Made by a program: the position numbers and the translations under genes. This document shows positions 1 to 9,655 of a stretch of DNA of 55,161 nt, one piece after another. The notes below the pieces were generated by a model. It did not search any database. It had not been told where the DNA came from and worked only from the letters and a program-made list of their open reading frames with translations. The DNA is from Candidatus Thorarchaeota archaeon (GTDB lineage Archaea; Asgardarchaeota; Thorarchaeia; Thorarchaeales; Thorarchaeaceae): assembly GCA_030612365.1 (NCBI GenBank), contig JAUWOA010000004.1, forward strand, positions 1-55,161, read 5' to 3'. Each line of letters starts with the position of its first letter. Position 1 is the first letter of the stretch.

Positions 1-43
1 GAACAAGAATGGGAGTGAACTCGTCTGACCGGACTGGTCAGAG

Positions 44-51
44 TTTATATA
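44..51 (+). promoter_or_regulatory. Archaeal TATA box for tnpB
   Basis: TTTATATA about 20-25 nt upstream of the GTG/ATG at 67/70, the usual position for a leaderless archaeal transcript. Confidence 0.55.
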
Positions 52-66
52 TCCTCGAAGGCGAAC

Positions 67-1746
67 GTGATGGTTCAATCCCAAACCCCAGTAATCAGTG
101 TCAAGATTCCCATCAACTGGGAAGCTATGACCAAACGGTCACGCCAAAGACTGACGCAGATTATGGGTCGGGATACCAGAGTGATTCGAGCGCTTGTTGG
201 CATTATCGAAGCGAATGAACTTGACCTTCTGCGAGGAAGGAATAGGAAACGCATCGACGAAAGCAAACTTCATGCCATGACTATGACAGCAGTGAGGACT
301 ACATGTGACACAAATCAGAGATTGGTTGTCAAGTACGATCTCAAAGCTCGCTTTCCAAGAGCTTCAGCAAACGAATTAACTGAGTGTCGGAGGGCTGCAG
401 TTGCGAATTATGAGAGCTACTTGGCTCTTCGTGCGAAAAAGTGGCGTCGTGCATCGAGGCCCTGCGAAATAAACCGCTCTCGGAGAATTCCTCGGTGGGT
501 ATATATCCCCTACAGAGCGAAGCTCGTCGAGCATAGAACGAGAGCTGCCCGTTGGTGGATCAATCTGAGGGACTCTCTGGACTCAACCCCTGAGGGTCGA
601 AAAACCCACGACAGACTGTTAGTACCTCTGAAGACGTCGCCATTCCATCTTAGCCAGCTTCGGCGGGGAAATCCAAAGGCACTGCAAGTCTTCAAAGACC
701 GAGAAGGCAAATGGTGGACTACAGTTGCAGTGAGATTATCAACTGTTGAAACTAGCCCTTCAAACCAACAATCTGCAGCTGTTCTGGGAATTGACCTTGG
801 TATCAACCGAGCAGTCTGCACCACACTACTTACGCCCAAGAAAGTGTCTGAAACTCGGTACTTCTACCAAGAAGATAAAGCCAAGCTGATGGTCAAGTAT
901 GATGAACTGGTCGCACAACTACAACAAGAATTCGACACTCGTAAGAACAAAGGACTGCACTACGAAGGAGTGTTAACCAAGCTCAAGACTCTCCGATTGA
1001 AGAGAGAGAAGGTCGCCAAGGAGCATGATCGGCTTCTTGTAAGTCAGCTCCTTGCCTACATCAAGACTCTCAATGAAGAGTTCGAACTCTATATCGCCCT
1101 CGGTAGACTGAAGGGGATTAGAGGTAGCGCTCGAAAGGGAAACTACAAGGGTCGGAAGTTCCGCGGGATGGTCCATAGGTGGTCCTTCTCCCGCATTACT
1201 CTCTCTCTCAAACACGGACTATCTCAGCTTGGGTGGAAGGTTGAGGGGAAGAGTGCTAGATTCCAAACGGTGCCTGAAGCTTGGACCTCCATCCTATGCT
1301 GGAAATGTGGTCGCAAGGGAATCCGACCTAAGCAGTCAATTTTCGTATGTCATACTTGCGGCTTTCGCACGAATGCAGACCGCAATGGCTCGCTAAATAT
1401 CGCGCGTCGCCTAATTAAGCTCACTCCCGCACTTCGGGATGAGAAAGGACTAGGGCGTTGGGCTCTCCCCGAGAGAGCTCCAGCCCCGAAGGCCGCGAGG
1501 AAGATTCGTTCTTCTAAACGGAAGTCCCCACTCCCCTCTAAGGATGATACATCACATCTTGGGGAGTCCGCGGCTATTCACTCTGCTCAATTGAGCCTTC
1601 TTGACTTCGGCGACGGAGTTCAGAAGAGTGATGATGACCTTGCCGTGGTAAGAACTGTGGAAAAACTCTCTGCCACTGGAGATGATGCAATCAGGATAGG
1701 GCAGAAGAGAGAAGCCAGGACTACAGGAGGGATTCAATCCCGATGA
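67..1746 (+). CDS. tnpB: TnpB-family RNA-guided endonuclease (RuvC + zinc ribbon) with rearranged RuvC-II
   Basis: RuvC-I VLGIDLGIN, Zn ribbon CWKC...CHTC, RuvC-III NADRNGSLNIA. Canonical RuvC-II Glu is replaced (YIALGRL), with an alternative VPEAWTS before the Zn finger. The start may be ATG 70. Confidence 0.92.
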   Translation: MMVQSQTPVISVKIPINWEAMTKRSRQRLTQIMGRDTRVIRALVGIIEANELDLLRGRNRKRIDESKLHAMTMTAVRTTCDTNQRLVVKYDLKARFPRASANELTECRRAAVANYESYLALRAKKWRRASRPCEINRSRRIPRWVYIPYRAKLVEHRTRAARWWINLRDSLDSTPEGRKTHDRLLVPLKTSPFHLSQLRRGNPKALQVFKDREGKWWTTVAVRLSTVETSPSNQQSAAVLGIDLGINRAVCTTLLTPKKVSETRYFYQEDKAKLMVKYDELVAQLQQEFDTRKNKGLHYEGVLTKLKTLRLKREKVAKEHDRLLVSQLLAYIKTLNEEFELYIALGRLKGIRGSARKGNYKGRKFRGMVHRWSFSRITLSLKHGLSQLGWKVEGKSARFQTVPEAWTSILCWKCGRKGIRPKQSIFVCHTCGFRTNADRNGSLNIARRLIKLTPALRDEKGLGRWALPERAPAPKAARKIRSSKRKSPLPSKDDTSHLGESAAIHSAQLSLLDFGDGVQKSDDDLAVVRTVEKLSATGDDAIRIGQKREARTTGGIQSR

Positions 1747-1866
1747 TGGTTGTCAAAGACCCTGCTTGCCTTCAGGTAGCACTGAAGGTTCGCGGTGACG
1801 CTGGGCGGGGTAAGGGTGGAACACAGAAGTCCGTAGACGCGGTTCACTCACTGTTTAGGAAAGGAA
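1450..1866 (+). ncRNA. Putative omegaRNA/reRNA overlapping the tnpB 3' end
   Basis: TnpB guide scaffolds are known to overlap the ORF 3' end and the right end. Here the last ~100 codons lack recognisable motifs, there is a hairpin CCTTCAG-GTAGCA-CTGAAGG (1769-1788), and the end reads TTCAC/TCAC at ~1843-1851. Boundaries are guesses. Confidence 0.4.
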
Positions 1867-1941
1867 TGGTGCGCCTGCCGGGAATCGAACCCGGGTCACC
1901 ACCTTGGAAGGGTGGAATCATTGCCCCTAGACTACAGGCGC
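1867..1941 (-). tRNA. tRNA-Gly(TCC), CCA encoded, no intron
   Basis: Reverse complement GCGCCTG...CAGGCGC-ACCA acceptor stem, anticodon arm CCACC-CTTCCAA-GGTGG, T-arm CCGGG-TTCGATT-CCCGG. Confidence 0.96.
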
Positions 1942-1955
1942 GATTGTCCGCACGC

Positions 1956-2182
1956 GGACGGTCAGTGGAAGGCTTGGATCATATTGGACTATGATGCGAT
2001 CTCACGGGCGGTCAGTGGAAGGCTGCCGTCCCAAACCAGACTACACAAGGCTGTGTTTCGGATGGCTCACTACTCCTTCGCGTTTTAAGGATGTTGTTGA
2101 AGTGGGTCTATCAGGACGGTCAGTGGAAGGCTCGAGTCATGTTGAAGCAGAAAGCGCTATCATGGATGGTCAGTGGAAGGGT
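1956..2182 (+). repeat. Array of 19-bp direct repeats (module A, GGACGGTCAGTGGAAGGCT), ~50-bp period
   Basis: Clear copies at 1956, 2006, 2114 and 2164. Degenerate copies at 2060 (GGATGGCTCA) and possibly 2212 (GAACTGTCAG). Spacings 50/54/54/50/(48). Confidence 0.85.
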
Positions 2183-2428
2183 GAATCCTGGTGGGCAAAG
2201 CGCGTAATTTCGAACTGTCAGCAATGGTGTTGTCGCAGACTACGGACTAGTAGGGCGCAACGTGCTTGAAGGAGGTCTTTGGGTTCTTTATGACTGTCAA
2301 TTGCACATCATGGCGCAACAAAAAGCGGATACTGAGCCCATCATACTGTATTGCCTGCTGGAATGCGTCAGGGACCTTGGGAACCCCACAGGAGGATTCT
2401 AGATGGAATCTACAGGCCATTCATAGTA

Positions 2429-2905
2429 TCAGTCGGCGGAAGCTCCTGCGCTATTGAGATAAAGAATTGCATGACTCCACACAGCGAGAATCGATGGAAC
2501 CGGAATGGGGATGATAAACCTAATGAAGAACGAAGGGGCCATCGCAAGGGAGAAGACTATGATAGGGAGAATTGTCTGAAACACAAGGACCGCACAGGCA
2601 ATACACAGCCCAATGCCTGAATCTTCTGGATTCATTATTGTGTGGCGAATGTTCATGGTCAGGCCCAAGCCCAGCACTATCCATGTCACAGTCAACGTGA
2701 CGAGTGCCAGAGAATCAAAAGCGTGACCTCCCACGAGACCCAGTCCAATTCGGTAGTTCCACACGCTGATATAGCCCCATACAAAGACAAAGACTTGGTC
2801 AAAGGATTCCAACCATACACTGTCCCAATACATAATAGACATGGGCATGGCGAATGTAGAGATTACAATCAGGCACCATGTCTTTGAGTTCATTGGTTCA
2901 TCCAT
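2429..2905 (-). CDS. Hypothetical multi-pass membrane protein
   Basis: 158-aa ORF with 4-5 hydrophobic segments. Confidence 0.7.
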   Translation of the reverse strand: MDEPMNSKTWCLIVISTFAMPMSIMYWDSVWLESFDQVFVFVWGYISVWNYRIGLGLVGGHAFDSLALVTLTVTWIVLGLGLTMNIRHTIMNPEDSGIGLCIACAVLVFQTILPIIVFSLAMAPSFFIRFIIPIPVPSILAVWSHAILYLNSAGASAD

Positions 2906-3292
2906 TGTCTTTCACCGCACCCACGCCACAAACACTGTGCATCCCTTATCGATCGCGAGAGGAGGTCATGTAACTTCGATGGAACGGAAACAGGAATCTA
3001 TTGAGTCCAAGAAGCGAAAGCATGAAGCATTATGCCTTGCCAACCACGGACTGGCACTCCCAAGATATTGATACTCATACCTTTGAGAAAAGCCTTTCTG
3101 GATGAGCCCTACTTTCACTCCCGCGGCTCGCTGGGCCGAACCACCAGACACCACCATAGCTCCCAGATCATAGAGGATGACCTAAATGCTCATCAGTTGT
3201 TGTCTAGATACGGCGTTAATAAACAAATGAAAAAAGGTTTGCAGCAATCAATTACGATGGAAGATACTCAATGTCCAAACAGGTAATGAAGC

Positions 3293-4030
3293 ATGACTGA
3301 AAGCAAACTGGGTGTCGATACTCACAGGAGCTCCCGGGTTATTCATTACTTCGCATTCACATTGGCGTATTGTGTGAGTATAGTCTTCGCAGTCATACTA
3401 GGAGCCACTCTTGGCCTAGTCCCGCCTATCGACTTCTGGTTACGAATTGCAGGGCCTTTTTTCATTCATGTTTCGATTATAGGACTGTGGCTCTTCATCG
3501 TATTTCTGCCTATCTTGTTCGTGACTAACCTGAACGTTATATGGTTCGGACGGGTTCTCCAGCAGAGATTCGTTTCTACTTCCGATGCCATCAGGACCGT
3601 ACTCGGGGTGATTGTTGCGGCTCCTTTGCTCATTATCGCCGTGTGTATCTATATCCTTATGGGCCACATATTCATCTGGCCGGTCGTAATACTTGTCTTA
3701 GGCCCGATTCTATCTGGGTTCCCGCTCGTCTATGTACTCGTCATCATTGGGATTATGACCAAAGACACAAAGCAACTCATCTCAGACTGTGCAAAGAACC
3801 CTCGTTTTTGGTTTGTGTCCCTCTTGTTGATTGCCATTCTTCTCTTCCCCCTGGCCGCCCTAGGTCTCCCATTACAAAAGGCCTATTTCCAGTACTTCCA
3901 GTCAGAAGAGCTCTTCCTAATGAACATCCCTGGCCTCGTTGTCAGGGCACTGATGATAGCATCTGTCTTACCCGCCATACCATTTGCATTCCTTCGGCTC
4001 AGAGATGAAATTCTCTTTGCCGAAAAATAA
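3293..4030 (+). CDS. Hypothetical multi-pass membrane protein
   Basis: 245-aa ORF with about 6 hydrophobic helices and an ATG start. Confidence 0.8.
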   Translation: MTESKLGVDTHRSSRVIHYFAFTLAYCVSIVFAVILGATLGLVPPIDFWLRIAGPFFIHVSIIGLWLFIVFLPILFVTNLNVIWFGRVLQQRFVSTSDAIRTVLGVIVAAPLLIIAVCIYILMGHIFIWPVVILVLGPILSGFPLVYVLVIIGIMTKDTKQLISDCAKNPRFWFVSLLLIAILLFPLAALGLPLQKAYFQYFQSEELFLMNIPGLVVRALMIASVLPAIPFAFLRLRDEILFAEK

Positions 4031-4042
4031 CCAGCAAGGAAC

Positions 4043-4726
4043 ATGAAGACCATGACTGGACGAAAGCGTCGATTAGCAGTACTCCTGGTTAGCTTACTCG
4101 TAATGTCAGTGGTATTTGCAGTATACATACTCGAGTTTAGCTCCAAGGTAGACTCTTCTCGATTGTGATGGGGGGTGAGCGAAGGGGTCCAATATGTGTA
4201 CGTGGTCAATGTCTGTGGCTTCAACATGACGGGCATCAGTAATGACAGCGTTGAGTGTCCTCTATCATTCGCACCGCTAAACAACACAAGAATCATCACG
4301 ACAGTATCATGCCTCCCAGACCTTCCCGGCCTCACAGATGCTAACTCATTCGCTACTGACGTAATTATCCAGACTAAGACTGAAGTCAGTTTGGAGAATG
4401 GAACAGAACTATCTGAACGGTATGATGACGCATTGGTGTCACTAATTTCCTTGACTTTGCTTCCCGTCGGTGACTGGTCACTGATTGATTCGTTATACGA
4501 AGATGAGGATCCAGAACCGCCATTCATGAAGACTTGGTATATCGCCAAGCAACATACTAGCTCCTTCGAGATTGGTTACACGTCGTATGGACCAGACTAT
4601 GCAAGTGGTTGGAATGGAAACCTATCTCTGACAACCGGACTGCCATACTCAGCCAATCTGTGGGCGTGGAATGCTGTTGAGTCCTTCTCATGGATACTCA
4701 CAATCACACTTCTATTGAATGATTGA
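4043..4726 (+). pseudogene. Membrane-anchored exported protein interrupted by in-frame TGA at 4166-4168; paralog of 8669-9343
   Basis: MKTMTGRKRRLAVLLVSLLVMSVVFAVYILEFSSKVDSSRL*WGVSEGVQYVYVV aligns with DASSLTWGVNEGDEFVYLV of the paralog. Shared motifs APxNNT, ENG(T/S)E, LLPVGDW..(I/L)DSLY, GN(L/V)SLTTG(L/I)P. Confidence 0.75.
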
Positions 4727-4895
4727 GCGTGACCGGGTCTACATGCTTAGCATTGCTTCTCGAGTTTCCTAATCTTCTCCATGATCAGAACGTACCTTTG
4801 GATACCCCAAGCCCATTCAAGGCTAGAAGGAATAGCCTACATTGTTTCATCTCATCCTTCGTTAATAACTAAATTGTTCAAACGGCCCTATCCAG

Positions 4896-4922
4896 TAATA
4901 CAAGAATTCAGAGGTGAACCAG
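4896..4922 (+). repeat. Intergenic module B, copy 1 (TAATACAAGAATTCAGAGGTGAACCAG)
   Basis: 26/27 identical to 8551-8577, with weaker similarity extending upstream (GGCCC...CAG). Confidence 0.85.
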
Positions 4923-5011
4923 CCACATCGTCCGATTCACATGTAATGTCCATCTGCTAGTCTTCAGACTATATGCTTAATACGAAGCGTACCAAGAGAA
5001 AGTGGGTATGT

Positions 5012-5286
5012 TTGTTGAAACAGTGGCATAGTGGACTGCTATTAATGCTCAGTAGCTTTGTAATCTGGAGTCTAGCTAACTCACTTCTTTTTCATTATAT
5101 TGTGAGCGTGTGGCATCCTGATTAGCATTTGGGGAACCAATATGGGTGATAGACCCTATTGGATTCATGATAATCTCAGTTCCAACAGGACTTGTGTTCT
5201 TTCTAGGAGTAATAGCATTCTTTGGGGATATGTTACCAAGAATAACGAACAAGAATGATGAGGGGAAAACAGCAGGTGTGGTATGA
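5012..5286 (+). pseudogene. Small two-TM membrane protein, frameshifted near 5122
   Basis: The frame from TTG 5012 gives LLKQWHSGLLLMLSSFVIWSLANSLLFHYIVSVWHPD*. The next frame continues AFGEPIWVIDPIGFMIISVPTGLVFFLGVIAFFGDMLPR...GVV*. One extra T (GATTAG to GATTTAG) joins them. Confidence 0.55.
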
Positions 5287-5384
5287 ATGGGAAGCAGCTT
5301 CGCTGGATGGATTCTCTATGCCTGCAGCGCGTTGCTTCCGGAAATGAAACACTGATTCAAGCAATCCTAAGGATGTGAAGTACA

Positions 5385-6713
5385 ATGATGAACAATATGC
5401 GCGTTCTCAAGAGAGTACTTGCTGGTCTTCTTGCCGTCCTCATCACAACGACCGCTTTCTTCTGGGTCATTCCTTATGTTGCCACCAACGTTGATAGAAA
5501 CACTTACAGCCAGCTCTCTATCGACCTGATACCTGAACATGTCTATCGGGACATGTATGTTGGAGACTTGAACTCCGATCAGCTGGATGACGTGGTTCTA
5601 ACTGGCTTTCAATCACTGCAGATTGCCATGCAGAACCAGTCTGGCGAATTCCAGCTGAGCACGTTGCTCGGCGCCAGGGAAACATATGGAGGACTGGTAG
5701 TCACAGACCTTGATGGAGATGCAGACCCCGATATATGCTGCAGGAATAGTACGAGCTCCTTCGTAGTTCTCTACAATGATGGGTCTGCCGATTTCGCGAA
5801 CCGGTCATTCTACAGTGTTGACTCAGCACAAAATATCCGTTCTCTGTTTCCGTTTCATCTTGAATACGAAAATAGAACGGACATCGGATTGACTCTCAGT
5901 GGTGATGATTACAGAATATGCCTTTACTCCAACAACGGACATGGGGACTTTTCTCTCAATCTCACAATTTCTTGCTCAAGTATTCCTGTCGCCGTAACAG
6001 GAGTTGATCCCGACCAGAATGGTCGTGGAGAGATAGCAATGCTTCATAACGACGGAAACTTCACAGTGGTTTCGAGTGTCTACCCCAGCAATGCCAGTCT
6101 GTTCATAAACATAGGGCAATGGATTGGCTATATCGACAATGCATGGATTTTGCCAGTGGACCTTGATGATGATTCAACTAAGGACTTCCTAGTGGTCGTC
6201 AATGACGGACCAAGATCCAGTCGAATTGTTTTCCTGAGAACATCAGCTACGGGATTCTCAGGAAGTCCGGTAGTGTGGTCATTTGCTTCTGCGTTCTTAG
6301 GCGCCAGTCTTGCAGACCTAGATAATGATGGCGATAGTGATTTTATTTTCACTCAGCTCTCAGGAGTCACAACTGTCTTTGAGAATGACCAAAATGGAAT
6401 ACCCAATCGCCACATGATTCTTCCAAGCCAGTCGTTACCACATTCACCAACCACAATGAGAACGAACCTTTCGGAATACCCCTCAGTAGCTGTCATAAAC
6501 CAGGTGGACGAATACTTGGTGGACTACAACCACATGGAGATAACAGTGGTTTCCAGGGAAACAGGAGTTCTTGCTGAATCCATATGGTTTGCCAGCCATT
6601 TCATGCACAATCCGATCCTGCTGGCTGGAAGAGTCGCCTCCGCCGTAACAGGTATTGCCTTGATTATCATAGTGGTCAAGCTTCTATCGCTAACCAAGCG
6701 ACCAGATAGCTAG
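5385..6713 (+). CDS. FG-GAP/VCBS-repeat (Ca-binding beta-propeller) surface protein with N- and C-terminal TM helices
   Basis: Repeated Dx[DN]xD motifs: DLNSDQLDD, DLDGDADPD, DPDQNGRGE, DLDDDSTKD, DLDNDGDSD, with YNDGSADF/NNGHGDF turns and hydrophobic ends. Confidence 0.85.
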   Translation: MMNNMRVLKRVLAGLLAVLITTTAFFWVIPYVATNVDRNTYSQLSIDLIPEHVYRDMYVGDLNSDQLDDVVLTGFQSLQIAMQNQSGEFQLSTLLGARETYGGLVVTDLDGDADPDICCRNSTSSFVVLYNDGSADFANRSFYSVDSAQNIRSLFPFHLEYENRTDIGLTLSGDDYRICLYSNNGHGDFSLNLTISCSSIPVAVTGVDPDQNGRGEIAMLHNDGNFTVVSSVYPSNASLFINIGQWIGYIDNAWILPVDLDDDSTKDFLVVVNDGPRSSRIVFLRTSATGFSGSPVVWSFASAFLGASLADLDNDGDSDFIFTQLSGVTTVFENDQNGIPNRHMILPSQSLPHSPTTMRTNLSEYPSVAVINQVDEYLVDYNHMEITVVSRETGVLAESIWFASHFMHNPILLAGRVASAVTGIALIIIVVKLLSLTKRPDS

Positions 6714-6871
6714 GAAACCATGCCAAACACGTTCATTGCAATCCGGCCAGAGTTGGACGCTTTGTCTGTCCAGAAACGACACTGAACCTTGATCGAACGT
6801 GAACGATGTTCCTCACTGCGTTGATGTCAGCATGAATTTTATGCACAACAATCCTCCTTGATTTTGCAGGA

Positions 6872-7312
6872 TTGCATATGTCAACGGGAAAAAAGCATTC
6901 ATCGACTGGTCGACTTGTCATACTGATAGCCAAGCACAAGACCACCCCGATAAGGAGCATCCTTGTTCTAGTTGTGTTTGTGATCTATCTTCCTTTTGTG
7001 TACCAGATTCATCTGGATATTCTTGCTCAATATGTCATCAATGGTGCTTTGTGGCCAAGCAGTGGTCATTGCCTTTTTCCTATTCCATTTAGCATCACGT
7101 GGACTCCGTTGGCAACTAACATTTCGATGCCTATTGCTCCTCAGCTTAGTGCTGGAGACCGTTTCATCTACGATTATTTCATCCCGAACGTGGGATTGAG
7201 GCTGCTGTGGTCAGCGCTATGGTTACTGTTGGGGCTCGCTTACATCTTCCGCCCCATAATCCCCAGTTTGAGGTCCAGAGATTCCCAAAGCAATCGAGCG
7301 GATGCAGACTAG
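6872..7312 (+). CDS. Hypothetical membrane protein
   Basis: 146-aa ORF with two hydrophobic segments. The start is uncertain (ATG 6878 or later). Confidence 0.65.
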   Translation: MHMSTGKKHSSTGRLVILIAKHKTTPIRSILVLVVFVIYLPFVYQIHLDILAQYVINGALWPSSGHCLFPIPFSITWTPLATNISMPIAPQLSAGDRFIYDYFIPNVGLRLLWSALWLLLGLAYIFRPIIPSLRSRDSQSNRADAD

Positions 7313-7326
7313 TCCTCTTGCTTTTG

Positions 7327-7923
7327 TCAACTCTTTGGCCGCAATACACCTCGTTTCATAACAGCACCAATTACCACCATCAATGTTACCACTCCAATGA
7401 TGGCCAGAACGATTACGGGAGTCGGGTCAGGGTCTGGCCAGTTCCATGCGTAGGAGTGCTGAATGACATCAGAAACACTACTATAACCGAGTGTGTCGTT
7501 GGCCACGTACCGGATATCCCAGATATAGACTCCGGGTTCAGGGACTTCGACATGAAGGTATGCCGCATAACGAGACCTTGTTGAGTTCTCATCCATGTCC
7601 TGCATGGTGATGTTAGACCATTGATCCTCAGTCCGGTTTCTGTATGAGGCTATGACAGTTTCGATTCCATCTGGATCTTCAACTGTGACTGTGAAGGTGA
7701 TAATGGTTTCAGGATCATATCCATTTGCATAGGAATCGCTATAGCTTAAGAATATGGGTCCCTGACCGTTGCTCAGTGCATGGCAGCACCTGAGAAAGCA
7801 TTGTGGCTCTTTGGTCCACGCAGGAGAAACACACATCAGGATGACCCAAGTGAGAACGGTCATCCTCAACAAGGAGATCCTTGCCATCACTTCCACCATT
7901 CTAAAGTATGTGTGACTCTCCAT
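7327..7923 (-). CDS. Exported Ig-like beta-sandwich protein with C-terminal TM anchor
   Basis: Signal-like N-terminus, ITFTVTVEDPDGIETV...YVANDTLG beta motif, then PDPDPTP linker, TM helix and basic tail. The true start is probably ~7887. Confidence 0.75.
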   Translation of the reverse strand: MESHTYFRMVEVMARISLLRMTVLTWVILMCVSPAWTKEPQCFLRCCHALSNGQGPIFLSYSDSYANGYDPETIITFTVTVEDPDGIETVIASYRNRTEDQWSNITMQDMDENSTRSRYAAYLHVEVPEPGVYIWDIRYVANDTLGYSSVSDVIQHSYAWNWPDPDPTPVIVLAIIGVVTLMVVIGAVMKRGVLRPKS

Positions 7924-8179
7924 TTAACCTCGTGGTCTTGCAATAGTGAGCGAAACTGAGGGATGGACTTGTTTCTTGGATTAGTCCTAGCTTCGGGCAT
8001 CGCACATCGAATCAGCAGGTTTGAGTAGTACATTGGCAAGCCGAAGCAATGTGTGCTCAGAGCTTGGTTTCTCATTCTTTGGATAATTCAAGGGAAGATG
8101 GAAGCACAGACGATGAGATTGGGAAGGAACCTACCAATGTACTTTAGGGAGAACTACATATTAATTCAGGGGGTCATTC

Positions 8180-8386
8180 ATGAAACAATCAGAACGTTGC
8201 CCCAAGTGTGGAAGTACACGGATTTGGAATGATGAGCATAGTTCGCGGAACAGGCGGGGAGCAATTATTATCTCTACGTGGAGAGTCGCAAGACAAGTCA
8301 CTTACGTTTGCACTAATTGTGGATACTCCGAGTATTATGTGGACACCAAAGGACTCCAGACCATCGAAAAACATGGAAGTTCATGA
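8180..8386 (+). CDS. Small zinc-ribbon protein
   Basis: CPKCGS...VCTNCGYSEYY in 68 aa, with a purine-rich RBS-like GGGGG upstream. Confidence 0.8.
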   Translation: MKQSERCPKCGSTRIWNDEHSSRNRRGAIIISTWRVARQVTYVCTNCGYSEYYVDTKGLQTIEKHGSS

Positions 8387-8550
8387 AACAGCTCTATTGA
8401 TGTGTGACATGACATCTGCCGCCACTAAATAGCTCTCTATTGTCCAGTGACTGATATCATAATCATCACTGTTCTCCAAACTAAACCTTCTCCACGCTAG
8501 GCAGGAGCCAAGTCCATCTTAAGTACTGTGCACCCTAGGGCCCCGTCAGA

Positions 8551-8609
8551 TAATACAAGAATTCAGAGGTGAGCCAGATACGCCCTCTTCGAGGGTCTTA
8601 TGGGCTCCC
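8551..8609 (+). repeat. Intergenic modules B (8551-8577) and C (8575-8609), fused
   Basis: B matches 4896-4922. C (CAGATACGCCCTCTTCGAGGGTCTTATGGGCTCCC) matches 9473-9507 at 32/35. C contains the hairpin CCCTC-TTC-GAGGG. Confidence 0.85.
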
Positions 8610-8668
8610 GGTGAACAACACGATATCCGAATTCGGAGCTTGTCAATAGCTGTTTTATCTCGCTCCTA

Positions 8669-9343
8669 CTAGGTCACGAGTACTAGCCTGTCATTGTGAC
8701 GAGTGCCCGCGGCGCGGTATTTGGATACGGTCACTATGGGAATACCAGTGGTGAGAGACACATTTCCGCTCCATCTGGAAACGGTGTCAGTTCCGTATAA
8801 CAGATATCCGATGGAAAAGGAGTCCGCATAGGTCCTTGAGAGATACACTCCAGGATAGTACGCCATTTCCGTTTCGTTTGGATAGAGTGAGTCAAGAAGT
8901 GGCCAATCACCAACGGGAAGTAGGCATCGATACAATAATCTGTTGATGTAGTCCCTGAATATCGAAGGAATCTCCGACCCGTTCTCGAATCTACACTCAG
9001 TCTTGGGATAATTGAGGACTTCTTCTGCGAAGATATCACCATTTATGACCAACGGTAGAGATGGGAAACTGGTTACGTTGAACCTTACAAGGGTGTTGTT
9101 CATCGGAGCCAAGTAGGGTGGTCCCAAGATCATGTTTGAGCTGTTCTCGGGGTCTATCGATGTCATATAGCCGCCTATAACAACCAAGTAGACAAATTCG
9201 TCACCCTCGTTGACACCCCAGGTTAGACTGGATGCGTCTCTCAGACCAGATGAATTCCAGATCGAGAGAAGGCAGAAAGCAAGCACGACGATTGTAGCAA
9301 TCGTGGCAGCAGTCACCAGTGCGACACGGTTGCGTCTTGCCAT
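8669..9343 (-). CDS. Membrane-anchored exported protein (paralog of 4043-4726)
   Basis: N-terminal basic residues plus TM, WGVNEG motif, LLPVGDW motif and several N-x-S/T sequons. Confidence 0.8.
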   Translation of the reverse strand: MARRNRVALVTAATIATIVVLAFCLLSIWNSSGLRDASSLTWGVNEGDEFVYLVVIGGYMTSIDPENSSNMILGPPYLAPMNNTLVRFNVTSFPSLPLVINGDIFAEEVLNYPKTECRFENGSEIPSIFRDYINRLLYRCLLPVGDWPLLDSLYPNETEMAYYPGVYLSRTYADSFSIGYLLYGTDTVSRWSGNVSLTTGIPIVTVSKYRAAGTRHNDRLVLVT

Positions 9344-9427
9344 AAGCCTGTCCCCGTAGTGGTTATGCGGGTATGCAGAAGAACATTCCTTTCCACGTAC
9401 GAGATGGTTTGCGCAGAGAACACAATC

Positions 9428-9507
9428 TCACGGACGGCCAGTGGAAGGCTGAGGTCCGTGAAGGCGTTCTAACAGACACGCCCTCTTCGAGGGTCTTGTG
9501 GGTTCCC
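9428..9507 (+). repeat. Intergenic modules A (9432-9450) and C (9473-9507)
   Basis: GGACGGCCAGTGGAAGGCT is 18/19 identical to module A and sits inside a stem TCACGGAC...GTCCGTGA (9428-9461). Module C follows. Confidence 0.85.
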
Positions 9508-9655
9508 TGCTACAAACTAAGTAGTGAAGTAGCATATCATTGGTCCAACCTACAATGAACGGTTGAGATAGGTGCACGCAAAGAAACGTAATCTACGACA
9601 TCAGTCTCGTTAACGGAGTATCAACTAACAGCGCGAGGCGGTGTCCCGAAGGACA

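Follow-up and report, generated by a model that had tools for sequence, protein, structure and literature searches.

Typical CRISPR repeats are near-identical and about 23 nt or more in length, and TnpB elements have their guide directly 3' of the omegaRNA scaffold, at the right end of the element. The ends of IS200/IS605-family elements have gene-less derivatives, such as PATE-like elements and REP/BIME-like hairpin repeats. In Islander-type islands, a displaced tRNA fragment marks the end of the inserted DNA, as described in PMC4383910. Archaeal tyrosine recombinases such as IntSSV1 are described as using the anticodon loop as crossover (overlap) region, the 7-nt loop and its stem corresponding to the overlap and core layout of an att site, and the same account names the tRNA's 5' half as att site of pTN3-like integrases (PMC8371274). 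In a natural population of archaea, a mobile element is proposed to have scattered a 5' fragment of tRNA-Thr by its insertion, the case being that of Caldiarchaeum subterraneum (PMC3293823).

The locus described here is best understood in comparison with these systems. With CRISPR arrays and TnpB omegaRNA guides it shares short, regular direct repeats beside a gene of the Cas12-ancestor type, but spacer uniqueness, cas genes, matches between spacers and mobile elements and the adjacency of scaffold and guide all fail here, and the conserved box has a length of just 13-19 nt, the conservation beyond it being that of paralogous sequence. With IS200/IS605 ends and their derivatives it shares a conserved hairpin, possibly related to the TnpB left end, at every junction, as well as solo omegaRNA tails; in contrast to them, no Y1 transposase was found in the family, the units hold tRNA sequence, and outside one genus they occupy a single locus. 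In common with tRNA-targeting integrative elements (Islander, SSV-type, pTN3-type), fragments of the target tRNA lie in direct orientation beside an intact copy, and the break is in the anticodon loop. Unlike in these elements, however, no integrase is found in or near any array, the insert seems to carry the whole tRNA and not the missing part only, there is little cargo on the 5' side, where the fragments are stacked at a period of 50-130 nt, and one junction only is precise. As in the Caldiarchaeum tRNA-Thr gene, a tRNA 5' fragment is parted from the working gene by inserted DNA, but the insert described there has 1.8 kb with a recombinase and a single fragment (PMC3293823), whereas up to five or more fragments are stacked here, with TnpB on the opposite side and without recombinase. 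The feature belongs to a known kind, displaced tRNA fragments at an insertion hot spot, and is unusual in its lack of an integrase, in the apparent carriage of a whole tRNA and in its link to TnpB.

The array, its neighbours and the guide question

The window is the whole stretch of DNA analysed, positions 1 to 55,161 (55,161 nt) of contig JAUWOA010000004.1, which is part of an archaeal metagenome-assembled genome of 2.32 Mb in 188 contigs. An inspection of the letters alone (the sequence-only reading) had described a repeat at 1956, 2006, 2114 and 2164, close to a TnpB gene and on the 5' side of a tRNA-Gly gene, and had considered a guide store for TnpB, a structured leader of the tRNA or a stack of recombination sites. 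This repeat is real: the 19-mer GGACGGTCAGTGGAAGGCT occurs without mismatch at 1956 and 2114, with one mismatch at 2006 and with two at 2164, while 0.01 matches are expected by chance and five were reached in none of 100 shuffles. A fifth copy, with one mismatch, had been overlooked at 9432. The start-to-start distances of the boxes in the array are 50, 108 and 50 nt. As the tRNA-Gly(UCC) gene sits on the minus strand at 1867-1941, the array indeed lies upstream of it. The features are the following:

11-51, plus strand: left-end module of the TnpB element, with GGGAGTGAACTC (11-22), the hairpin TCTGACC/GGTCAGA (24-30, 36-42) and the TATA-like TTTATATA (44-51)
67-1746, plus strand: tnpB ORF of 559 aa; its product, a TnpB of divergent sequence, has CxxC pairs at residues 411 and 428 and reads NADRN at 436
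1747-1851, plus strand: non-coding stretch that comprises the omegaRNA tail and the element's right end, with terminus GGTTCACTCAC (1841-1851); omegaRNA-tail profile match at 1791-1860 (6.4e-18)
1852-1866, plus strand: 15-nt spacer from the element right end to the tRNA (sequence reading)
1867-1941, minus strand: intact tRNA-Gly(UCC) gene (ARAGORN; Rfam tRNA model, 63.1 bits)
1942-1955, minus strand: short leader without TATA box, reaching the first box (sequence reading)
1956-2005, minus strand: unit 1, box (read on the plus strand) and pseudo 5' half of tRNA-Gly without acceptor strand (5'-half profile 14.2 bits, starting at the anticodon-loop position)
2006-2059, minus strand: unit 2, box and longer pseudo 5' half with the D-arm-like AGACTACA (2038-2045) (family D3; 5'-half profile 5.5 bits)
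2060-2113, minus strand: leader-like segment with a BRE/TATA match (minus-strand CCTTAAAA, 2083-2090) and a hairpin module ending in the next box (2099-2123), assigned by homology to relatives
2114-2163, minus strand: unit 3 (box match; 5'-half profile 9.9 bits)
2164-2237, minus strand: unit 4, its box with two mismatches, and a decayed fifth box remnant at about 2216-2230 (unit profile E=0.045)
7298-7320, minus strand: piece of the leader/promoter module, cut short at a synteny breakpoint (profile match 7250-7320)
8560-8644, minus strand: fragment of the terminal module of a genus-specific repeat (nhmmer)
9320-9512, minus strand: one unit (box 9432-9450) with terminal module, at the far edge of the variable region that extends from 2.3 to 9.5 kb (sequence matches)

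The suspicion that the first and the fourth spacer might be related was justified and even too mild, as 1956-2025 and 2114-2183 share 77% identity across 70 nt, and the "spacers" are therefore paralogous. At 2060, where a decayed copy had been assumed, no box is found at up to three mismatches. The segment 2060-2113 is a leader/promoter module, homologous to the stretch directly after the tRNA in a relative (G006) and also to the promoter region that each of the 34 loci surveyed below possesses. Of the copy assumed near 2212, a weak box remnant could be recognized by eye in comparison with related loci, and nothing stronger.

The neighbouring gene had been correctly addressed as tnpB: its product matches the Cas12f1-like TNB family of Pfam (1.7e-11) and TnpB/Cas12f chains in the PDB, and scores 81.8 bits with NCBIfam guided_TnpB, under the cut-off of 100. 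Compared with an IS200/IS605-type element, the neighbour has the omegaRNA that overlaps and follows the 3' end of tnpB, but a Y1 TnpA was found in none of 16 family genomes. The contig begins at or within this element, whose left-end module is also found upstream of paralogous tnpB genes on three other contigs (C91, C13, C182) and in locus L030. Eight more copies of the omegaRNA tail are present in the genome (E≤6.7e-06), which has solo tails.

The idea that the array serves this TnpB as guide store or mini-array did not hold up. Because the omegaRNA scaffold stops at 1851, the guide would be expected in the 15-nt spacer 1852-1866, and the array starts only at 1956, past this spacer and the 75-nt tRNA gene. 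Complementarity of the repeat to the omegaRNA region, which had been envisaged, is not apparent, as no inverted repeat of at least 10 nt links 1450-1866 to the array. Neither do the spacers vary in relatives as those of a guide store might, since the same "spacers" recur at 81-92% identity in G001 and G006, nor do they correspond to phage, plasmid or viral sequences: the array has no match in phages and plasmids at E≤0.01, and the 43 exact 15-mer matches in viral contigs are all single, with none reaching beyond the box, the unit profile continuing for at most nine positions past the 15-mer. The absence of cas genes was confirmed by Pfam scans of the 51 ORFs of the window, which show no Cas family and TnpB as sole relative. 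Unit profile and omegaRNA-tail profile do not cross-match genome-wide at E≤10, and no units are present at the paralogous tnpB or omegaRNA loci of this genome. A homology of units and omegaRNA tail was considered and rejected: in G017 the box resembles a conserved stretch of the tail with two mismatches in 13 positions, and the profiles give no support, with at most 3.0 bits at a decoy 99th percentile of 3.5. The link between array and TnpB is historical or positional and does not reflect a guide function, and we infer that the array has no such function today.

Truncated tRNA-Gly 5' halves joined to a hairpin end

The array is a tandem stack of truncated 5' parts of tRNA-Gly(UCC), all oriented as the working gene. 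Its 19-nt "repeat" is the junction of a conserved hairpin end (...GGTCAG) to the anticodon loop, and its "spacers" are the decaying rest of the tRNA 5' half, the leader and the promoter. On the plus strand, the units begin with ...GGTCAG, followed by TGGAAGG, then by five variable positions and finally by either ATCAT or ATCCT. The letters that follow GGTCAG are antisense to the anticodon loop, the 5' strand of the anticodon stem and the D-stem of tRNA-Gly, the unit thus starting with the anticodon-loop heptamer TGGAAGG and continuing with the anticodon-stem strand and a D-arm remnant, and some copies extend to the tRNA 5' end, the leader and the TATA box. The 13-nt box is far better conserved than the remainder of the unit.

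Statistical evidence comes from a profile made of 19 distinct tRNA-Gly 5' halves in antisense, with the loop as first position, which was scanned against ten array regions of 450 nt, 500 dinucleotide-shuffled decoys and 24 array-less upstream regions. The ten array regions gave 34 matches of at least 3 bits, 29 of which reached at least 6 bits, whereas the 500 decoys gave ten and two, respectively, and the 24 array-less upstream regions none. In 33 of the 34 matches, the start coincides with profile position 1, the loop. One unit of locus L013 is a complete 5' half with own leader and TATA box (27.8 bits), and one piece in L033 corresponds to the 5' end of the tRNA half only.

The stretch that precedes each box resembles the left end of TnpB elements (GGGAGTGAACTC, hairpin CTGACC/GGTCAG, TATA), and a homology of the two is weakly suggested by sequence comparison. 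A left-end profile matched three such modules in relatives, none of them in the window (5.5, 4.8 and 3.6 bits; 99th percentile of decoys 2.0, maximum 5.8 in 900), and an exact 12-mer as well as a hairpin arm are common to module and left end in L030, but at genome scale the modules were not found by this profile.

In the window and in G007, G017 and G051, the working tRNA has a leader of 14-24 nt without TATA box before the first box; the TATA-less short-leader layout of the window is also seen at loci L013, L018 and L061. Judging from these arrangements, it is probably an older unit that supplies the promoter of the working tRNA in the four genomes, a promoter which in the window would be located at 2083-2090, and the minus-strand TTAAAA that had been pointed out at 2083-2088 is indeed present. 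If the working tRNA uses a promoter near 2083, units 1 and 2 would consequently be transcribed as leader, and they probably belong to a long pre-tRNA leader which is removed by RNase P. A leader role, as contemplated by the sequence-only reading, is therefore conceivable for units 1 and 2, which lie between the sole BRE/TATA match of the family type (2078-2100) and the tRNA, but not for the other units. With regard to RNA structure, the complementarity GGGCGG...CCGTCC ascribed to copy 2 exists, but the whole array folds no better than shuffled sequences (z of -0.05 and -0.08 on the two strands). Units 3 and 4 of the window are without hairpin, and the mean z of 32 units is -0.68 on the plus and -0.73 on the minus strand (a non-unit match at position 490 of L015 was left out of the fold test and of the unit profile). 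In other genera, several units form long hairpins by pairing of the box with a complementary tail, with z down to -3.8, and three G-U pairs in such stems fit the plus strand (by eye). These long hairpins leave room for a cis-acting or RNA role. At E≤1, Rfam yielded no match other than the tRNA.

Other identities were rejected. For an origin-recognition box (ORB), which the box might resemble, an Orc1/Cdc6 family member was looked for among the window ORFs and not found, and all boxes are direct repeats. A C/D box sRNA is not indicated either, with no Rfam match at E≤1, and the box-like words are, by eye, the D-arm remnant of the tRNA and the hairpin end. Split-tRNA 5'-half genes were dismissed as most units have no acceptor strand, and a comparison by eye showed no complementarity between the unit trailer and the leader of the 3' half that this genome carries on contig C53.

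Distribution in the family, displaced 3' halves and dispersed copies

The survey comprised 34 tRNA-Gly(UCC) loci from 34 genomes of one family (16 + 18 loci), leaving out a tRNA-Gly(GCC) locus (L060) and duplicate loci (L046-L053, L067, L068). Arrays of two to at least five units, directly upstream of the tRNA, are present in ten of the 34 loci, from six genera, and absent in the other 24, while all 34 have in common a BRE/TATA region that lies upstream of either the tRNA or a unit, at a distance of some 40 nt. An omegaRNA tail follows immediately 3' of the tRNA in eight of the ten array loci, as compared to none of the 23 array-less loci with sequence at this position, a contrast that overstates the association because related genomes are not independent. 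The remaining two array loci have neither a match to the omegaRNA tail nor a TnpB ORF; in L031, the terminal GTTCACTCAC alone remains (by eye), and in L032, just 162 nt of sequence are available 3' of the tRNA. A tnpB ORF or fragment adjoins six of the ten array loci and none of the 24 array-less ones. Among 12 further related TnpB loci, the two that have a tRNA-Gly(UCC) after the element, both from Ca. Thorarchaeota MAGs, also have boxes, and the other ten have neither. The array therefore tracks the pair of TnpB element and tRNA-Gly, with boxes in 2/2 such loci and 0/10 TnpB loci without tRNA-Gly, and not TnpB as such.

The tRNA-adjacent TnpBs form two lineages, one with G000, G017, G051 and G007 and the other with G080 and G064, which groups with a paralog from elsewhere in G000. 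As these TnpBs are not monophyletic with respect to paralogs, the tRNA-TnpB block did not simply spread as one unit. The distribution of arrays is patchy even inside one genus, and the number of units differs between close relatives (two in G074 versus four in G066, two in L129 versus four in L030), the latter pair implying an internal gain or loss, so that a gain of units is not strictly tRNA-proximal.

Counterparts of the 5' halves exist. On the TnpB side of the intact tRNA, 3' halves of tRNAs that end in the anticodon loop are found after an omegaRNA tail and spacer at a distance of 6.7 kb in G051 and about 10 kb in G007, and two such 3' halves are located on contig C53 of the window's genome. 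The DNA between intact tRNA and 3' half contains a gene of about 1530 aa without Pfam match, to which G007 adds a metallophosphatase and an SMC-like ATPase, and no integrase was found in this DNA. A nested arrangement is seen in G066, where the gene order from EMG1 to topoisomerase IB is shared with congeners that have no array. Here, the resident tRNA-Gly exists as two pieces, a 5' fragment that has a TATA box of its own (2162-2182) and a 3' fragment (4886-4933), which enclose the array, an intact tRNA differing in sequence and a remnant of the right end. When displaced 3' fragment and units of one genome are compared by eye, without statistical test, the anticodon-stem strand of the fragment can pair with units at 5/5 positions in G066 and G007 and at 4/5 in G051 and G000, and in G066 and G007 it differs, again by eye, from the stem of the current tRNA. 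The junction at the hairpin end is precise, and the far (left) junction, which shares no flank between cases, shifts by 1-5 nt.

Outside the window's genus, units are restricted to the tRNA-Gly locus. In this genome, further copies are found on four contigs (C5, C40, C113, C172) and at 9432 in the window, none of them beside a tRNA, and the TnpB matches are situated either on different contigs or, in the case of C59, at a distance of about 7.7 kb. The double unit of about 100 nt at 2107-2208 has many dispersed copies in the congeners G001 and G006 with 81-92% identity, "spacers" included. The exact 13-mer was counted seven times in G000, eleven times in G006 and ten times in G001, and not at all in four other congeners of 52-87% completeness. 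Dispersed copies are mosaics of the tRNA upstream region (leader, promoter-like module, units, terminal module) that are situated between small membrane-protein genes at synteny breakpoints, where they are truncated; they have no defined ends and no target duplications, and no adjoining integrase or TnpB was found. A 465-aa ORF near dispersed copies was considered as recombinase candidate and discarded, its sequence being that of a multi-pass membrane protein.

In metagenome contigs (four runs of one study, at least 85% identity), X1 and X3 each have one contig in which 36 different letters connect 1914 with 2058. This hints at a relative without units 1 and 2, the inserted letters of which read as a different tRNA 5' end, possibly from other organisms.

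Origin of the array and significance for the family

Of the possibilities that the sequence-only reading had raised, a stack of recombination sites agrees best with the data: the units are tRNA 5' halves broken at the anticodon loop, with reciprocal 3' halves elsewhere. As the arrays are found where a TnpB element adjoins tRNA-Gly, they most likely are a record of repeated insertions and not a guide store, and we consider it somewhat better than an even bet (a probability of roughly 0.55) that the array consists of the scars of a serial insertion of a segment with tRNA and TnpB into the anticodon loop of tRNA-Gly. Such a mobile segment would carry a complete tRNA-Gly, flanked on one side by the hairpin end and a short leader, which may or may not include a promoter, and on the other side by spacer, TnpB element and variable cargo, and it would insert repeatedly into the anticodon loop of the resident gene. 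In each event, the old 5' half with its promoter would be moved upstream, and since there would be near-zero cargo on the 5' side, the units come to lie only 50-130 nt apart, while the old 3' half, still preceded by omegaRNA tail and spacer, would be moved by kilobases to the TnpB side. Unequal crossing-over and deletion may later alter the number of units, and in the window's genus, copies of the whole upstream block may also border shuffled blocks of small genes. The insertion model accounts for the tight one-sided stacking of units, the distant 3' halves with omegaRNA tails, the association with TnpB, the different tRNA sequence in array-bearing genomes and the variation of unit number among close relatives. 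Counting against it are the missing recombinase, the lack of a free copy of the segment, the non-polar changes of units and the imprecise left junctions, which have no common end sequence and thus do not resemble those of a two-ended site-specific element. Furthermore, the 50-64-nt units share one architecture across genera, and an amplification of a single ancestral unit is equally possible in this respect.

As to the enzyme, no integrase family was detected by Pfam among the ORFs of any array locus, a search that divergent or split archaeal integrases could escape, and PF00589 is matched in three of five array-bearing genomes and was not found in G007 and G080. A Y1 (HUH) transposase was found in none of 16 family genomes, with a control that detected it in 6 of 14 known genomes, and the search for a Y2 transposase gave no match, its control being equally silent. 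Viral, phage and plasmid collections yielded no free or intact copy of the proposed tRNA-bearing segment. A more far-reaching proposal, which we regard as doubtful, is that the arrays are fossil traces, in Thorarchaeota-like Asgard archaea, of a novel mobile cassette without integrase and TnpA that carries its own tRNA-Gly beside TnpB and inserts precisely into the anticodon loop by means of a hairpin end related to the TnpB left end. The junctions of such a cassette could be made by a hairpin-specific enzyme of unrecognised type, or by recombination at breaks made by TnpB, and the stacked junction boxes might still be usable as landing or recombination sites.

What alternatives exist for serial insertion? 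The main rival is a purely local duplication with unequal exchange, in which one ancient illegitimate join of hairpin end and anticodon loop gave rise to a partial duplicate of promoter and 5' half that was amplified and trimmed by slippage and unequal crossing-over, TnpB being just a linked neighbour and the 3' halves unrelated. It would agree with the same junction and short-unit layout in all genera, with the paralogy of units within a genome (77% over 70 nt in the window), with the internal gain or loss between L030 and L129 and with the failure to find a recombinase. We nevertheless think it rather unlikely, because it leaves unexplained the loop-ended 3' halves with omegaRNA tails kilobases away in three genomes, the pairing of their stems with units instead of the current tRNA, the split resident gene around the whole block in G066, the near-invariant junction amid the decay of the remaining unit, and the patchy occurrence within one genus. 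That the units are live sites is less probable than this, be it as cis-acting, arm-type sites for a recombinase or transcription factor upstream of tRNA-Gly, or as hairpin RNAs from the TnpB-sense strand. The box of 13 nt is indeed much better conserved than its surroundings in the unit, the units recur regularly at about 50-64 nt, and the long box-tail hairpins of other genera (z to -3.8), with three G-U pairs that fit the plus strand, could be interpreted accordingly, but a mean z of just -0.68/-0.73 for 32 units, the z close to zero of the window array with its hairpin-less units 3 and 4, the lack of an Rfam family and the 24 of 34 relatives that express the same tRNA without units speak against it.

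It is more improbable still that the TnpB element gave rise to the units as small, non-autonomous derivatives (PATE/MITE-like, composed of left-end hairpin and captured tRNA) that multiply in tandem and, in this genus, transpose to other intergenic sites. The likeness of the module to the left end (three profile matches above the decoy 99th percentile, the 12-mer and hairpin arm of L030), the dispersed copies in G000, G001 and G006 (7, 10 and 11 exact 13-mers) and the solo omegaRNA tails of the genome would be in line with such an origin. The left-end profile misses the modules at genome scale, however, no Y1 transposase was found in 16 family genomes, the dispersed copies are mosaics cut at synteny breakpoints that show neither defined ends nor target duplications, and in other genera no units occur away from tRNA-Gly. 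Least credible, and very improbable indeed, is a CRISPR-like mini-array or guide store as intermediate between TnpB and Cas12. The periodicity of the direct repeats, their position on the tnpB-sense strand some 100 nt beyond the omegaRNA, the weak likeness of box and omegaRNA tail (two of 13 mismatches in G017, at most 3.0 bits) and the occurrence of arrays only where a TnpB element abuts the tRNA may have invited this interpretation, but the "spacers" are homologous to each other, derived from tRNA and conserved between loci and genomes, cas genes and phage, plasmid or viral matches are missing, a spacer and a whole tRNA gene separate scaffold and array, the unit and omegaRNA profiles neither cross-match nor is there complementarity, and 10 of the 12 other TnpB loci have no units.

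The analysis thus removes a lead on a "missing link" between TnpB and Cas12 and replaces it by a concrete, testable pattern. In about one in three of the genomes sampled from one Asgard archaeal family, a single tRNA-Gly(UCC) gene has repeatedly been broken at its anticodon loop and rebuilt, in the company of a TnpB element (8/10 loci, as judged by the omegaRNA tail) and without recognisable integrase or transposase. If the insertion model is true, the arrays would document, dated and in order, how mobile DNA inserted at one essential gene, they would point to a new site-specific mechanism that is tied to TnpB elements, and they would bear on the old idea that mobile elements drive the fragmentation of tRNA genes in archaea.

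Element ends and gene-less tails

The TnpB element of the window carries inverted terminal words, GAGTGAAC near its left end and GTTCACTC at its right end. When the host genome (G000) was searched with an omegaRNA-tail profile, at least nine copies of the tail were found, whereas only three full-length and one partial tnpB ORFs are present, and several of the copies must therefore be tails without a gene. The places concerned in G000 are as follows.

Window 1-1851, contigs C13, C91, C182, C24, C78, C51 and C53: TnpB element or omegaRNA tail
Contigs C24, C78 (two), C51 and C53: gene-less omegaRNA tails

Contig C53 also holds two displaced pieces of the 3' part of tRNA-Gly (4340-4386 and 4787-4880). 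One piece comprises an omegaRNA tail and the spacer, together with nt 1-22 of the tRNA, and the second is a tRNA-Gly 3' half whose end falls in the anticodon loop. This contig may adjoin the start of the window's contig.

The variable region beyond the array

Immediately beyond the array of truncated tRNA-Gly 5' halves, window 2238-2371 is another dispersed segment, which matches C132:3190-3323 of the same genome at 74% and C116:22412-22544 of the related genome G004 at 75%. Window 2300-9520 is a variable region made up of small genes, for which no family matches were found; two of the encoded proteins belong to a paralog family with six members.

Window 4175-4726 and 8669-9343: membrane-anchored paralogs, ~225 aa

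The genes of this region recur in changed order on contig C49 of G006 and contig C192 of G001, and the borders of the reordered blocks carry repeat modules, i.e. dispersed pieces of the tRNA-Gly upstream region.

The tRNA-Gly loci of related genomes

A eukaryote-type topoisomerase IB gene lies near tRNA-Gly(UCC) in all six relatives' loci in which the neighbour was scanned or compared (L031, L055, L056, L064 and L075) or inspected by eye (L020). In two loci, a long gene is located between the TnpB element and the displaced tRNA 3' half.

L075 (G051, contig C2), 2250-6830: ~1530-aa gene
L076 (G007, contig C21), 4853-9466: ~1530-aa gene

Neither gene has a Pfam match, and in G007 a metallophosphatase and an SMC-like ATPase come as a pair after it. 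Together, the long genes and this pair could be defence-type cargo. The tRNA-adjacent TnpBs of these two loci (L075 7077-8759; L076 2924-4615) belong to different genera and share 88% protein identity, and all remaining pairs of tRNA-adjacent TnpBs are at 51-72%. This high identity could mean that the two genera are closely related or that the block was transferred recently.
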